In this document: piece by piece, positions 13,152 through 54,556 of the stretch
How the letters are laid out: each line of letters opens with the position of its first letter
Numbering within the stretch: the first letter of the stretch is position 1
IMG/VR virus record: IMGVR_UViG_3300030419_001484
Coordinates: 1-64,000 of that record
Origin: a virus
Strand: one strand, 5' to 3'
Length of the DNA: 64,000 nt
Translations under genes and position numbers: made by a program
Notes under the pieces: model-generated
The model's database searches: none
Seen by the model: only the letters and a program-made list of their open reading frames with translations
Told to the model about the DNA's origin: nothing

Positions 13152-13180
13152 TTGACAAAGAAAGAATAGTATGATACTTT
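13152..13180 (+). promoter_or_regulatory. sigma70-type early promoter (others with -35 at 13427, 18092, 18784, 28012, 29659, 41558, 41909, 42286, 52672, 52744, 52991, 53381)
   Basis: TTGACA/TTGACT, 16-17 nt spacer, TAnnnT -10. Confidence 0.75.
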
Positions 13181-18532: not shown

Positions 18533-18591
18533 ACGACCTATATGACGTACCTCTCTCAAACTCGCAAAACTCAAAAAGTCATATAGGTCGT
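18533..18591 (+). promoter_or_regulatory. 14-bp perfect hairpin with CCUCUCUC-containing loop
   Basis: ACGACCTATATGAC / GTCATATAGGTCGT, 31-nt loop. Confidence 0.7.
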
Positions 18592-18602
18592 ACAGAGAGA
18601 AT

Positions 18603-27707: not shown

Positions 27708-28015
27708 TAACATTAACTGAAAACGCAAAAGAATATCTAACAGATATGGTATCCAAGTCAGATGATACATATGCAAGATTATCTGTCAAGGGTGGTGGTT
27801 GTGCTGGTTTCGAATACAAGTGGGAAACTACAGACACAACCGAAAAAGGAACACTCATAGATGATGTCTTGGTGTTAGATACTATGGCTGAGATGTTTCT
27901 ACTTGGTTGCACTGTGGACTACATAAAAGAATTTGGTGGTTCTTACTTAACAGTTAAGAATCCTAACGCACACTCCTCATGTGGGTGTGGAACAAGTTTC
28001 TCAATTAAGACTTGA
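27704..28015 (+). CDS. iscA: HesB/IscA A-type Fe-S carrier protein
   Basis: ITLTENA, GGGCAGFEY, NPNAHSSCGCGTSF. Confidence 0.92.
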   Translation: MITLTENAKEYLTDMVSKSDDTYARLSVKGGGCAGFEYKWETTDTTEKGTLIDDVLVLDTMAEMFLLGCTVDYIKEFGGSYLTVKNPNAHSSCGCGTSFSIKT

Positions 28016-28046
28016 CAAACGGAACGAATCATGTTATAAATATAGT

Positions 28047-28110
28047 ATAGTTCGTTGATACGGATTGAAAGATGGACAGGACTTGGGTGCGATACCCAAC
28101 ACCTCCACCA
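28047..28110 (+). ncRNA. ssrA: permuted tmRNA, acceptor (3') piece
   Basis: T-arm TTGGG-TGCGATA-CCCAA then CACCTCC-A-CCA; TAGTTC and TGATACG pair with GAACTA and CGTATCG in the coding piece; 5' boundary approximate. Confidence 0.88.
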
Positions 28111-28113
28111 AAC

Positions 28114-28228
28114 ACTCGTCCAGTACAACGCCTTTGTAGTCGTAATGCACATGGTAAATTACTCACGGCAGATCGAACACGAATGGTAAGACATTTTAGG
28201 ATTTATCTGGTGTGGCGACCAGACGAGT
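28114..28228 (+). ncRNA. unidentified multi-way-junction RNA inside the tmRNA intervening segment
   Basis: ACTCGTC/GACGAGT closing helix, four internal stems, complementary loops CGCC/GGCG. Confidence 0.55.
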
Positions 28229-28287
28229 ACCTCGCTAAAAGGAGATTAATATGATTTTAGATAATACAATAATGGGGGGTCAAGACG

Positions 28288-28404
28288 ATGAAGAACCCTC
28301 TAGTGCAAACAATAAGTAAGTGGATGTTTAGAGCCTACATTGCATGGAGCATATGTGCAGACATCATAGTGATAGGTGGTATCATATACCTAATCTTTTT
28401 TTAG
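28288..28404 (+). CDS. 38-aa membrane peptide inside the tmRNA intervening segment
   Basis: MKNPLVQTISKWMFRAYIAWSICADIIVIGGIIYLIFF*; GGGGG upstream; stop abuts tmRNA G1. Confidence 0.6.
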   Translation: MKNPLVQTISKWMFRAYIAWSICADIIVIGGIIYLIFF

Positions 28405-28573
28405 GGGGGTGAAATAGGATCGACTGACGTTGAATAGAAAAGTGGAGAACTATCGGTTTACCTCGTATCGGTTAAAAAAACTAAACGCAAACGATGATTT
28501 TGCACCTGTAGATTACGCACTAGCTGCTTAATCGTACTGAGTTCGGTGGGTACTTGGAAACAGAAACCCACCA
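28405..28573 (+). ncRNA. ssrA: permuted tmRNA, coding (5') piece with tag ANDDFAPVDYALAA
   Basis: GGGGGTGAAATAGGATCGAC start; G3:U70 with acceptor piece; tag ORF 28487-28531; terminal GGTGGGT/ACCCACC hairpin. Confidence 0.92.
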
Positions 28574-28604
28574 CAGTTTCAGAGTTTCGCTGACGGGCGA
28601 AAAC

Positions 28605-28789
28605 GTGTCGTGCAAGGAAGAGATTCTCACCAGAGGGTCGAACTTGATTAGTTAGAGGTGGTACTCAGGCATGGTTGCAGAAATGCGTTGTGTCACATCA
28701 ATCTACCGATTGGAACTAGGTTCTGAAAGTATGAAAGAATGGTATCTTGGTCTTTCAGTTGTAGGTGTTAACCTTAGTCCTACCGACAC
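28605..28789 (+). ncRNA. manA-like large structured RNA
   Basis: GTGTCG/CGACAC closure; ACTTGA, GTGGTACTCAGG, CACATC, GTTCT, GGTATC, GTTGTAGGT..TCCTAC recalled as manA-motif-like. Confidence 0.6.
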
Positions 28790-28911
28790 AAATTAATGAT
28801 GCCTATGCGAATAGGTTCGGTTGAAAAAAATCGGTAAGATCATTAAGGGTCACTACTTAATAAGTGCGTGTGGGGTCATGGTTAACCCCACATCTTATAA
28901 ATGGAGTTATT

Positions 28912-49108: not shown

Positions 49109-49866
49109 TGTTCTTCAGAAAGAAGAAAACTGACGATATAATTCTTGATTGTTATACCTATAATCCTTATGCGTATAACTTTGCAAAAATAAACTATGGA
49201 TATCATTACATTCCAGAGTGGTGGAAAAAGACACCAAAAATTCTAGAAAAAAGAATTGCGACAATCAAAAACTGTCCAGCATTTGTTGAGTATTACACGA
49301 AAGGTATTGTCTTACCGATGTGGTGTGAACTTATAATACAGATTGAACCAAAGGGAAGTGAACAATTATTTACTTGGAAAAGTTCGCATAAAAAGTTCGG
49401 TATCAATCCCCATATACAAGAACAATTTAAAGGGTTTTCAAAAGAGGATGGACATAATCTAAAAATGGTGTCGCCTTGGTATATAAAGTGTAAAGAGGAG
49501 ATTTCTTTTACATATACACAACCAACTTGGAATCAGAGAGATACAATATTCGACCTTATATTACAACCAGGCGTGTTAAGTTTCAAATCAAATATGCAGA
49601 CAAATCTAAATTACTTCTTTCAACAAAAAAACACACAACAGAACATACACATACAACCATTAACACCAATGGTGATTATGCATCCAATATCAGAGAGAAA
49701 AGTAAAACTCAGACATCACTTTTTGACAAGTAAAGAAGACGAAGATGGAGCTCTATCTGGAATTAACAACGGAATGTTATTTGATAATTATCCAGAAAAT
49801 GTACATAAAAAGGCAAAGAAATTATTTGAAAAAATAGATGAAGTAGATGGAGGGATATACAAATAA
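49108..49866 (+). CDS. conserved marine-phage beta-sandwich protein
   Basis: PEWWK, TIKNCPAF, SPW, PG, TP motifs. Confidence 0.55.
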   Translation: MFFRKKKTDDIILDCYTYNPYAYNFAKINYGYHYIPEWWKKTPKILEKRIATIKNCPAFVEYYTKGIVLPMWCELIIQIEPKGSEQLFTWKSSHKKFGINPHIQEQFKGFSKEDGHNLKMVSPWYIKCKEEISFTYTQPTWNQRDTIFDLILQPGVLSFKSNMQTNLNYFFQQKNTQQNIHIQPLTPMVIMHPISERKVKLRHHFLTSKEDEDGALSGINNGMLFDNYPENVHKKAKKLFEKIDEVDGGIYK

Positions 49867-52267: not shown

Positions 52268-52455
52268 CATATCCAGAAACAATCATATATACAGATAAAG
52301 AAAGAATATACTGTAATGGTGACTTTGGAAACGATCACCCAAGAGTATATTATTCAGTACCCACAGAAGGGTTTGTAGTTTGTGGTTATTGTGATACAAA
52401 GTATACTAGAGATGATAACTTTAAAGACTATACTAATACTTACGACTCTGAGTAA
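52264..52455 (+). CDS. zf-CHCC zinc-finger protein
   Basis: CNG...HPRVY...CGYC. Confidence 0.85.
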   Translation: MTYPETIIYTDKERIYCNGDFGNDHPRVYYSVPTEGFVVCGYCDTKYTRDDNFKDYTNTYDSE

Positions 52456-52518
52456 TCTATTCATAGTAGATGACGACCTAGTGAGAACAAGACCGATAGG
52501 GGGATATCGGAAAGAATA

Positions 52519-52646
52519 TGGTACTTGATGGGAATGTATGGTATTTTCGGACACTATTTAAAAAGGTATAAAAAAACATAGAGTTGTTGTGTTCTTACTT
52601 TGTAGTCTATCGTCAGAATTACCCCACAGTCCCCCAGATTTTACCA
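52519..52646. promoter_or_regulatory. two convergent triplets of TGGGN-like boxes with 10-bp period (MraZ-box-like)
   Basis: TGGTA/TGGGA/TGGTA at 52519/52529/52539; CCCCA/CCCCA/TACCA at 52622/52632/52642. Confidence 0.45.
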
Positions 52647-52778
52647 CAGACAGACAGTAGAAACGAATCAGTTGACAGGTATCAAGTGATAGTATAGAGT
52701 ATCAAGTCCTGTAAGTCTTTGATTCTAAAGGGAAATAAAACACTTGACAACCACACGAATCTCTGATACATTATAAGT

Positions 52779-52977
52779 GTAGTTAGTAAAAAGGTTAAAG
52801 ACAGACATTAGGCATGTGTTGATACTAACTTGTTGGTCACTCATTAACTGTCGTAAAAGCCCTCCTTTTTACTTTCTACACAATGGGTGTCCGATCATGA
52901 GGACTCAAACAAACACATAACAAAAACTTAACCCAGACTGATGAGCGGTGGCATAACAAGTAGGTCTGGGTTTTTTT
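52779..52977 (+). ncRNA. candidate ~200-nt early small RNA
   Basis: promoter at 52744, no substantial sense ORF, terminator 52930-52977. Confidence 0.55.
52930..52977 (+). terminator. intrinsic terminator
   Basis: AACCCAGAC/GTCTGGGTT plus T7. Confidence 0.7.
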
Positions 52978-53024
52978 GTGTCGAAAAGACTTGACAAGTA
53001 TTACAGATTCGTGTATACTTATAG

Positions 53025-53270
53025 TGTAGTTAATAGAGAGGTGATTCGATATGGTGTAAAAGGAAACGGAGATAGACACCCTCAACCTTTGGGAAGTTTA
53101 TCGTTTGGAGAGATTATGGAGTTCGGAGTTCCAGCCTAGGATCGTTAGTGTAAAAGGTTACAACCCCAGATGAGGTGGGTCATTCGATAAAGGAGTGATT
53201 CATAAGAGTAGTCTGGGGTTGACTTGTATCTGGGGTAGGTGATTCGTTTCGGCCTTATACCCCCCTTAAA
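53025..53270 (+). ncRNA. candidate second early structured RNA
   Basis: promoter at 52991; ATG-GTG-TAA mini-ORF; long hairpin 53161-53221; boundaries approximate. Confidence 0.45.
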
Positions 53271-53551
53271 TCTGTGATTCGTTTTGTAATCTATAAATGT
53301 AATAAGTATCCAGAGAGATTTTTCAGAGTACCCCCCCCCAAAACTGAGCGGCTTTTATTTTCACTTCCCTAGATAAATACTTGACACATATACCGAATCA
53401 TGTTATAGTAAGAATATGAGATTAATGACTGACGATTATATTATGAATATAACAAGTGTTCCTATATGGAGTGAGTGGACTCCGTAAGGGGCCGCAGTAG
53501 ACTTGAAGTTTCTTTCATTGTTTCATATGAATAAATTATTAGGAGTATATT

Positions 53552-54556
53552 ATGAATAAAGATAAAAGTATAATTAAGAATGTTAGGTTGGCTCTAAAAA
53601 TTCTTGGTAAACCTAGTCTATCTAGTACAATAGGAAAAGTGATAAGAAAACTAGACCCTACTGATGATGGATATAGATTTAGATGGATACTATCACAATC
53701 TGGTCACTTTGATTATGATAGACAACTATCCACACCTAAAAAGTATTATTGGATTGACCCTAATGTATAATCGTAGTGAACAACGTGAGAGGAAACTTGC
53801 GATAAGACCACTCATAGAATTAGAAGATGAACTGTGGCAACTCAACCAATTGTCAAAGTTAAACAAAGATACACGCAATCGTAAAGCTCGTCTGGAGCGA
53901 GTAGTCGCAGTTAAGAGATTTGCATTACAGAAAGTACAAGAGAAGATTGCAAAAGAAGTTGAGAAAAGTAAATGAAAAAAAATATTGAAGAAATGCATAA
54001 ACAGTTCTTCATACTTGTAAGAATGTTAACAAAGGATGGACACGACCCACTTGCAATAGCTGGGTGTATGTTAGCAGGTGCAGTACAAATATATCAAAAA
54101 GAGTTGGGTATGGAAACGACACAGGATTTGTTAGATCAGATTGCAAATGGTGGTGATGATGATTTAGATAGTTTAGAGGATATGAAAGATCCAGATACCT
54201 ATCATTGACATGGAGATTATATTATGGGTTTGATGCCAATATATTATACGACTACCAAACTGAGTGGTAGAAGAAAGGTTTCTGTTCGTGAGAGAAGGTT
54301 GAGAGAGAATCATGAGAAATGGTTAAAGACTATGGGTATAGATAAGCCTTGGAAACCAAAGAAAGAGGTGTTAAAATTAGCGAGCGAAAAAAAGGAGAGA
54401 TATTCGAGTGTAGGGAATGGTATCGGTAATGGTTTCGTTAAGACTTCTTCTGTGTTAAGTGGTGAGTATATCATAGGTCAAGCATACAACAAAGGTAATC
54501 TAGTTGTGTTAAGTAAAGAGGACGCAAAGGACGAGAGTACTGGAAAGAGAAGATGA
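53552..54556 (+). CDS. four early hypothetical genes (53552-53770, ~53763-53975, 53972-54208, 54224-54556)
   Basis: coupled ORFs; the last has a conserved IGQAYNKGNL motif. Confidence 0.6.

Follow-up and report, generated by a model that had tools for sequence, protein, structure and literature searches.

AbcR1 and AbcR2 are the alpha-r15 small RNAs (sRNAs) of Alphaproteobacteria and present the motif CUCCCA in exposed loops or single strands, usually twice, with ABC-transporter mRNAs as targets of Hfq-dependent repression, and the cuckoo or CcsR RNAs of Rhodobacter and its relatives are composed of tandem hairpins that carry CCUCCUCCC in each loop and are encoded downstream of a small DUF1127 gene. 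Among phages and prophages, trans-acting sRNAs include DicF, IpeX and the anti-sRNAs of EHEC prophages, which come from temperate enterobacterial phages, and the tRNA region of phage T4 gives rise to stable RNAs (species 1 and 2) of unknown function, which are processed from a tRNA precursor cluster.

Here we analyzed a locus in a stretch of viral DNA of 64,000 nucleotides (hereafter, the window), which belongs to an IMG/VR virus record of 73.8 kb with an estimated completeness of ~48%. The locus is very probably a real sRNA gene. A first-pass annotation of it had drawn on AbcR and cuckoo RNAs as models, a likeness that was not sustained, since the architecture differs and there is no Rfam match: the sense strand of 52744-52977 returned no family at even E = 10, and six homologous loci returned none at E = 1. 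For the whole, we tentatively favor the reading that this is a genuine, independently transcribed and structured sRNA gene of an undescribed modular family, which may function as an early trans-acting riboregulator by pairing. The marine T4-like phages that infect streamlined heterotrophs belong to the most abundant ocean viruses, and the way in which they schedule gene expression is poorly understood; the sRNA is a concrete candidate for early control at the RNA level.

The record encodes the baseplate proteins gp5 and gp6 of a T4-like myovirus, and the G+C content of the window is 31-38% (2-kb windows). The window contains an alpha-type two-piece tmRNA, a manA RNA, and a tRNA-Thr, and its tRNA/tmRNA genes are located at 28-31.7 kb and, hence, are not adjacent to the sRNA. 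Because an alpha-type two-piece tmRNA is carried, the phage host is possibly alphaproteobacterial. Two-piece tmRNAs are known from the marine Melnitz/pelagimyophage group (PMC9004378).

Boundaries of the RNA gene

The sRNA is situated in a ~1.1-kb stretch without a substantial gene (52456-53551; hereafter, the hub), which is bordered by a zf-CHCC gene on one side and a run of small genes on the other. The genes upstream of the sRNA encode a 2OG-Fe(II) oxygenase and the zf-CHCC protein, and its neighbors, from ~36.6 to 64 kb of the window, are without exception plus-strand genes. The hub contains four near-consensus sigma-70 promoters (52672, 52744, 52991, and 53381), many GANTC and GTGATTCG boxes (7 vs 0.77 expected), phased repeats, and a late-promoter-like motif that is conserved in distant relatives.

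The features of the sRNA gene are listed in Table 1. The promoter, which the first-pass annotation had described as an IHF/GANTC promoter, was found with TTGACA at 52744-52749 and TACATT at 52767-52772, a TG upstream of TACATT, and a CGAATCT box in the spacer (52756-52762; GANTC at 52757-52761). As to IHF, there is one match to the loose consensus WATCAANNNNTTR, seen by eye on the minus strand at 52712-52724, where about two per window are expected. The arrangement TTGACA...GANTC...TAnnnT occurs 6 times in the window against an expectation of 0.45, a count reached by no shuffle, and the same promoter architecture is present upstream of every homologue whose contig extends that far. The promoter appears to belong to the host sigma-70 type, on which marine T4-like phages rely in the early phase. 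The transcript would start at G52777-G52779, 5-7 nt past the -10 element, and end with the U7 tail.

Table 1. Coordinates of the sRNA gene and its parts in the window.
Feature	Position	Strand	Description
Sigma-70-type promoter	52744..52772	+	TTGACA, 17-nt spacer, TACATT; 10/12 matches
Small RNA, ~199-201 nt	52777..52977	+	CM R1 scores the window copy 138.9 bits
P1 5' arm	52777..52794	+	copy of the shared early-mRNA leader (GURUAGUUA...)
P2 hairpin (GACAGA / UGUGUU) and variable P3 hairpin	52800..52840	+	alignment, consensus fold
Junction strand (C/A)CUCAUUAACUGU(C/A)GUAAAA-CnCU	52838..52863	+	invariant columns; mostly unpaired in prediction
Anti-SD-like CCCUCCUUU	52860..52868	+	invariant in the family: CUCC and U run only
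P1 3' arm ("anti-leader" strand)	52864..52881	+	paired in 98% of cells, with a single G-C to A-U exchange
Hairpin H, GGGUG-N-CC [GAUCAUGA] GG-N'-CUCA	52885..52907	+	found in every member retrieved
CA-rich linker, unstructured	52908..52929	+	unpaired in predicted fold
Intrinsic terminator	52930..52977	+	9-10 bp G+C-rich stem, 25-nt loop with small inner stem, U7

The interval between promoter and terminator had been described as ~200 nt without a substantial sense open reading frame (ORF), and this was confirmed: the sole sense ORF has 34 aa (52816-52920, GTG start) and is not conserved in relatives. The same applies to an ORF of 39 aa on the minus strand (52725-52844). Neither strand holds a conserved ORF, and the homologues are set apart by indels whose lengths are not divisible by three.

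The strong terminator of the first-pass annotation was likewise verified, with perfectly paired 9-bp arms (52930-52938 / 52964-52972), T7 at 52971-52977, and a folding energy of -15.6 kcal/mol; a simple terminator scan missed it solely by the loop, which exceeds the limit of 8 nt, and called the short-looped terminator of the homologue L110. Of the homologues with their 3' end on the contig, all but L107 have a terminator. The stems of relatives show compensation (CCCAGAC/GUCUGGG vs CUCAGAC/GUCUGAG) and are combined with at least five different loops. A hammerhead-like CUGAUGAG and a k-turn or loop-E reading, both in the terminator loop, were inspected by eye, together with a 5-codon ORF over hairpin H and a kissing-loop palindrome, UCAUGA, and were dropped as unconserved or off consensus.

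Six marine RNA libraries from three studies contain 5-9% of the sampled words of the region. The contigs of four RNA libraries come from relatives and cover the conserved hub only, and several of the RNA-library contigs run through promoters or the terminator, with which transcription, read-through, and DNA carry-over are all consistent.

Relatives, modules and conserved folding

Related contigs were found by anchoring on gp5, and a degenerate pattern of hairpin H, a segment identical in the window and in the homologue L029, was used as a metagenome query. The pattern retrieved 15 marine metagenome contigs, 14 of which are true homologues, one duplicating the contig of L021; the G+C-rich contig L111 was discarded as a chance match, in which N:N' is the non-pair G/A. 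Besides the window, 13 distinct sequence variants were collected from IMG/VR and marine metagenome contigs, a small sample that represents two or three clades. By blastn, the homologue in L029 is 79% identical across 52744-52908 with flanking genes 74-85% identical, and parts of the hub are conserved as well as or better than most adjoining genes. A shorter version of the sRNA is held by L020 and L021.

The family has not been met beyond this circle. There was no blastn match to 52400-53600 in isolate phage genomes, no copy in the species-representative genomes of bacteria and archaea apart from one chance match in Arthrobacter, and no copy in a CM R1 search of more distant gp5 relatives. Anchoring on the 2OG oxygenase yielded no relatives, and anchoring on the Trp-halogenase gene yielded relatives of 38-47% identity, all without the sRNA. 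In IMG/VR, the exact 17-mer around the anti-Shine-Dalgarno (anti-SD) element gave seven matches, all rejected as reverse complements of an SD with ATG in unrelated genes, and the junction pattern CTCATTAACTGTNGTAAAA gave, besides L029/L101, only one unrelated coding family. Most likely, the sRNA family does not extend beyond a narrow clade of marine T4-like phages, which are uncultured and carry a two-piece tmRNA.

The members are assembled from modules in the order of promoter with CGAATC box, M1, optional M2, H, linker, and terminator. M1 is a 5' domain of ~105 nt, consisting of a closing helix P1 (14-16 bp), P2, P3, and the invariant junction. The two arms of P1 form an 18-nt inverted repeat (52777-52794 / 52864-52881) with 89% complementarity, of which the perfect 10-bp helix noted in the first-pass annotation (52785-52794 : 52864-52873) is a part. 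In relatives, P3 either ends in a tetraloop (UUCG or GAAA) or is extended by 18 nt, and L112 is without the 5' arm of P1. M2 is an inserted hairpin domain of ~125 nt in L104, L108, L113, and L109. The CA-rich tract that had been noticed after the motif is indeed present (52908-52929) and is the linker of the window; it is preceded by an extra hairpin, M3, in L029-type members and replaced by a U-rich linker in the L021 type. A short hairpin replaces the M1 core in L021/L020 and L107, which have no junction and no CUCC and retain the promoter and hairpin H, and L021 also retains the terminator. Of the modules, H alone recurs in all members retrieved, a universality that partly reflects its use as the search pattern. 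Its loop stays GAU(C/A)A(U/C)GA, 8 nt, and is ~100% unpaired in prediction.

The helices are supported by the alignments of the homologues. In alignment A2, with seven distinct 5' domains, 96.6% of cells were paired compared with at most 55.7% in slid controls, the covariation score was 0.132 compared with 0.068, with none of 500 shuffles as high, and four pairs changed on both sides. In alignment A4, with 13 distinct rows, which was fitted to the covariance model and hence favors structure, 94.2% of cells were paired compared with at most 50.6% in slid controls, and 11 pairs had changes on both sides compared with 4.4 +/- 1.4 in shuffles (0/500). Compensatory changes occur in P1, P3, H, and the terminator: three of the four pairs of P3 change on both sides, pair 142/155 of A4, in H, is found as 5 pair types, and N:N' of H is U-A, C-G, G-C, or U-G in all true homologues, a position that was left free in the search pattern and whose pairing was, hence, no criterion of the search. 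Folded on its own, the 5' domain is far more stable than its shuffles (z = -3.6, 0/200 as good), and the whole 199 nt is not (z = -1.2). Over the alignments, 94-97% of cells were paired against at most 56% in slid controls, and the discrete promoter-to-terminator non-coding RNA gene of the first-pass annotation is conserved in related phages with helices that covary. We regard this alignment-based evidence for the sRNA structure as good, not overwhelming, given the small sample from two or three clades.

A conserved structure could also serve a protein. The main rival to a base-pairing regulator is a protein-binding or decoy RNA centered on hairpin H, which would bind or titrate a protein of the host or the phage through the H loop, the A/C-rich linker, and perhaps the CUCC and U-rich strand, and whose partner might be an RNA chaperone, a nuclease or toxin attacking the 16S tail, or a factor recognizing the early leader. 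It would fit well with the fact that H alone is found in every variant retrieved, with a covarying stem and a constant, exposed loop, although this universality is partly owing to the use of H as the search pattern. The complement of the H loop is not enriched in the window and no RNA target for it was found, the leader-like copies in the 5' arm and the M3 loop could mimic early mRNAs, and the gain and loss of modular domains would be typical of scaffold RNAs. However, there is no known candidate for the protein partner, the 73.8-kb record encodes neither Hfq nor ProQ nor CsrA, and the resemblance of the CUCC and U-rich strand to the 3' tail of 16S rRNA, which we presume, is short. We consider this role rather unlikely.

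Selection might, alternatively, act on the DNA, with the RNA as a by-product of a transcription-primed replication origin or of promoter/terminator insulators marked by GANTC methylation sites. The abundance of signals in the hub, namely its four strong promoters, its GANTC/GTGATTCG boxes, its phased repeats, and its late-promoter-like motif, would suit such an element. However, the compensatory changes in helices, the swaps of the P3 tetraloop, and the varied yet functional terminators indicate selection on the RNA, and no GC-skew turn was found at 52-53 kb when the hub was tested, which carries little weight in a T4-like phage. A DNA-level element is decidedly improbable in our estimation.

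The pyrimidine-rich strand and the early leader

According to the first-pass annotation, the sRNA is a switchable anti-SD RNA that represses AGGAG-type host and late mRNAs, lets GAGAG-type early mRNAs escape, and forms a two-RNA timer with a hairpin at 18533. Its anti-SD motif, CCCTCCTTT, is present at 52860-52868, but CCUCC occurs in only two of the 11 members that bear the 5' domain (the window and L110), with the remaining nine reading CGCUCCCUUU, and only CUCC with the U run is shared unchanged by all 11. The variants L021 and L107 lack the element, and the motif is at chance frequency, with CCTCCTTT found once in the window against 1.9 expected. CCUCC was supposed to be conserved and is not, so that the strict form of the idea fails, and a CCUCC-loop model discriminating two classes of ribosome-binding site is not supported.

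The proposed masking and exposure of the motif were upheld in part. The 10-bp masking helix is real, and half of the motif lies inside it: in the consensus fold, P1 takes up the last two C of CUCC (C52864 onwards) together with the U run. Of the seven M1-bearing members folded, five give these bases an unpaired probability of 0.00-0.06, and the other two, L029 and L113, fold differently. The 3-4 bases 5' of the paired C are mostly free in five of the seven, and the four bases 5' of the strand, predicted to be unpaired, constitute a potential toehold. The sequences GTAAAA (52853-52858) and TTTTAC (52867-52872), which were thought to loop the motif out, are present, but the GUAAAA/UUUUAC hairpin is complete in one of seven sequences, namely the window, and shows no covariation. 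The RNA may nevertheless be switchable, since an alternative fold frees the strand in silico, but with a different partner, the junction being paired with the 5' arm. Freeing the CUCC strand, when forced to be single-stranded, costs 7-13 kcal/mol (~13 in the window), a constraint that also bars the M3 partner of L029/L103.

The window uses both AGGAG-like and GAGAG-like leaders, and the discrimination between them was examined by predicted duplex energies. The median for the core was -7.8 kcal/mol with AGGAG-type and -6.7 kcal/mol with GAGAG-type leaders, and that for the whole strand was -11.0 and -10.75 kcal/mol, respectively, so that the claim that the former are repressed and the latter escape comes down to a difference of only ~1 kcal/mol. 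The best predicted duplexes are formed with the GGAGG-type translation initiation regions (TIRs) at 49866 and 51650. The CUCC segment had no specificity against shuffled leaders (-8.9 vs -8.3 kcal/mol), and no extended target site for the CUCC strand was found in the window or L029. The AAAGGAG apex of the unit that follows does not co-vary with the strand, being unchanged in relatives whose sRNA has CUCCCUUU in place of CCUCCUUU. The 18533 hairpin exists, and nothing connects it with the sRNA. Thus, weighing the invariance of CUCC with the U run, the potential toehold, the alternative fold, the two leader classes of the phage, and the favorable GGAGG-type duplexes against the rarity of CCUCC, its pairing in P1, the loop-out hairpin of a single sequence, the small energy difference, and the missing link to 18533, we regard the first-pass model as very improbable, and the specific AGGAG-versus-GAGAG timer in it as extremely so. 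A weaker version, in which a conserved and partly masked pyrimidine strand is able to bind purine-rich leaders, is possible.

The early mRNAs of the phage share a leader of the form GURUAGUUAAUAA-GAGAGAG-(5-9 nt)-AUG, which is seen after the promoters at 13152, 18092, 41558, 42286, and 52991. The first 18 nt of the sRNA copy this leader, and P1 is therefore a leader:anti-leader duplex. The junction CUCAUUAACU is, in turn, complementary to the early-leader core AGUUAAU-GAG and is the best leader-specific segment, with -8.4 kcal/mol compared with -5.6 kcal/mol for shuffled leaders, a modest complementarity (2.8 kcal/mol) that was found after several ideas were examined. When the CUCC strand is held single, four of five homologues (L110, L029, L103, and L105) refold to pair the 5' arm with the junction, a fold that is the minimum free energy structure in L029, and the bases of this alternative pairing are invariant in the family. 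The M3 hairpin of L029-type members carries a further leader-like loop.

It is conceivable, although distinctly unlikely in this specific form, that the RNA is a bistable leader/anti-leader riboregulator that shuts off early (or host) translation with a delay and by RNA alone. Its building blocks would be leader copies (the 5' arm and, in some relatives, the M3 loop) and two complements, the junction CUCAUUAACU and the CUCC strand. The RNA would mask itself in one fold; in the other, the 5' arm would pair with the junction, and the CU-rich strand, resembling the 16S rRNA tail, would be freed to capture early leaders or ribosome-binding sites. The related isolate Melnitz has promoters of the early and late classes, and no middle promoters could be identified in it (PMC9004378). 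If true, the shut-off would operate in a phage group without recognizable middle-mode transcription.

Possible modes of action and comparison with known RNAs

A structured 5' domain and an invariant junction followed by a terminator resemble an aptamer with an expression platform, and the RNA could accordingly be conceived as a cis-acting leader, that is, a riboswitch or attenuator with a terminator that governs how far transcription reads on into the unit downstream. Against this, the near-consensus promoter 52991 lies within 14 nt of the terminator, just past it, so that downstream expression needs no read-through. In addition, the modules between the 5' domain and the terminator vary freely, there is no conserved anti-terminator pairing with the terminator stem, and no Rfam riboswitch was matched. 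A cis-acting leader is hardly plausible. It is scarcely credible that the locus is a small protein gene on the minus strand, with AAAGGAGGG as its SD, an ATG at 52844, and the 39 aa open at 52725-52844; although all seven matches to the 17-mer elsewhere in IMG/VR read as an SD followed by ATG in reverse complement, the SD-to-ATG spacing would be 15-16 nt, L029 has a different peptide of 20 aa, the P3 indels shift the frame, the observed changes keep RNA pairs and not codons, and the neighboring genes are all on the plus strand.

We return to the reading of the locus as an independent gene for an early trans-acting sRNA. Host RNA polymerase would make the sRNA early in infection, and the sRNA would act in trans by base pairing of its pyrimidine-rich strands, the junction CUCAUUAACU and CnCUCC, with purine-rich 5' leaders or ribosome-binding sites. 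The most obvious targets would be the phage's own early mRNAs with the leader GURUAGUUAAUAA-GAGAGAG, and P1 would mask one of the two anti-leader strands. That the RNA acts by pairing with leaders or SD regions is, taken by itself, a somewhat doubtful though possible part of this reading.

The sRNA represents a new and well-defined RNA family, with a covariance model, ~13 variants, and a modular architecture, and is fit for inclusion in RNA databases. Its value would be modest if it were merely another phage sRNA without a known target.

Compared with the described systems, the sRNA shares with AbcR RNAs its stand-alone nature, an intrinsic terminator, and a C/U-rich element that could pair with SD sequences. 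It differs from them in having a single CUCC, which sits at the junction and has its 3' half enclosed in a helix of 16 bp, and in being phage-encoded, ~200 nt long, and modular, with another fold and no Rfam match. With the cuckoo/CcsR RNAs it has in common an anti-SD-like C-rich motif in a small RNA, whereas the CCUCCUCCC loop motif and the repeated hairpin units are absent from the phage sRNA, and the gene upstream of it is zf-CHCC and not DUF1127. DicF, IpeX, and the anti-sRNAs of EHEC prophages resemble it as short non-coding genes with their own promoter and intrinsic terminator in a variable phage region and with presumed pairing to mRNAs; however, they are unrelated in sequence and structure, and the present RNA is larger, belongs to a lytic-type marine T4-like phage, and is partly built from a copy of the phage's own early leader and its complement. 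Finally, like species 1 and 2 of T4, it is a non-coding RNA of a T4-type phage, but it has its own promoter and terminator and is encoded away from the tRNA/tmRNA genes.

Elements shared among the early promoters

The early promoters of the window were found to share a fixed CGAATC(A/T) (GANTC) box, which lies in their spacers and occurs in either orientation, and a transcribed leader, GURUAGUUAAUAA-GAGAGAG, was also common to them. The promoter of the two-piece tmRNA contains a CGAATC box as well. The hairpin at 18533 was confirmed to be present as described in the first-pass annotation, with a perfect 14-bp stem and CCUCUCUC inside its 31-nt loop, and it is located immediately 5' of a ACAGAGAGAAU-AUG start. 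The same annotation had joined this hairpin to the sRNA in a two-RNA translational timer; nothing was found that connects the two.

Coordinates of the features (window positions unless a contig is named; L numbers denote related IMG/VR or marine metagenome contigs)
Feature	Position	Description
Hairpin	18533-18602	Perfect 14 bp; 31-nt loop
Two-piece (alpha-type) tmRNA, then directly manA RNA motif	28008-28793	
Small ORF	52412-52528	38 aa; other frame, overlapping 3' end of zf-CHCC gene
Non-coding block	52529-52618	Conserved in L020, L021, L029
Second unit, 5' part	52991-53062	Promoter at 52991, next after sRNA
Hairpin	53161-53221	Within second unit; compared with sRNA terminator (52930-52972)
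Late-promoter-like motif	53285-53313	Also in L028, L040, L045, L021, L029
Promoter and leader	53381-53551	Leader of ~140 nt
Early promoters	13152, 13427, 18092, 18784, 41558, 41909, 42286, 52744, 52991, 53381	
sRNA variant	L112 5118-5361	P1 5' arm missing; rest intact

Variants of the sRNA and the unit 3' of it

Members of the sRNA family differ in their inserts and, in one case, by a deletion. M2, a well-paired inserted domain of ~125 nt, is located between the 5' domain M1 and the hairpin H in L104, L108, L113 and L109, and its presence varies, with some members carrying it and others not. L029-type members have an additional 45-nt hairpin, M3, of which the loop is G-rich and leader-like. 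In the L112 variant, ~23 nt immediately 3' of the promoter are deleted, resulting in the loss of the 5' arm of P1, the helix closing M1. The variant may have decayed into a degenerate copy, may result from an assembly error, or may be constitutively "open".

The second unit is identical to the sRNA over its first 11 nt. Its early leader is of the canonical form, and the Shine-Dalgarno sequence in it, GAGAGGUGAU or AAAGGUGAU, is strong; a mini-ORF of two codons, AUG-(G/U)UG-UAA/UAG, follows. The start, the single sense codon and the stop of this mini-ORF were retained in 11 of the 11 relatives reaching that far, the loci named for the comparison being the window, L029, L103-L106, L108-L110, L112 and L115. 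The region 3' of the mini-ORF is structured, and a clear terminator was not seen there. The hairpin at 53161-53221 shares its stem and internal-loop pattern with the sRNA terminator, CCCAGA-UGA(U)GAG ... AAG(A)GUAG-UCUGGG. Its apex presents AAAGGAG between two direct boxes of GTGATTCG, a sequence that is overrepresented in the window (7 occurrences, 0.77 expected), and this apex was unaltered in relatives in which the sRNA reads CUCCCUUU instead of CCUCCUUU.

Conserved segments flanking the two units

On the 5' side of the sRNA, the 38-aa ORF, kept in L021 and L029, has a hydrophobic N-terminus and a C-terminal end of ...VRTRPxGGYRKEYGT. The identity of the adjoining non-coding block was 89-91% in L020, L021 and L029, exceeding that of most flanking coding sequence, and the block could still be traced in L040 and L045, which are distant relatives. 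It contains an A-rich tract and TGG-type repeats spaced by ~10 bp.

On the 3' side, promoter 53381 and its leader showed an identity of 86-90% in L020/21, L026/28 and L029. Because the 3' end of a 23-aa ORF within this segment is not conserved, the sequence comparison suggests that the leader is a structured 5' UTR of the gene cluster from 53552 on. The motif at 53285-53313 is near-invariant, reading G(C/T)AATCTATAAATG(C/T)AATAAGTATCCAG, and was retained even where the identity of gp5 was only 56-58%; at the window's two deviations from it, a 5-bp hairpin is maintained via G-U pairs. The motif includes TATAAAT, the core of T4-type late promoters, preceded by a C-run and AAAACTG.
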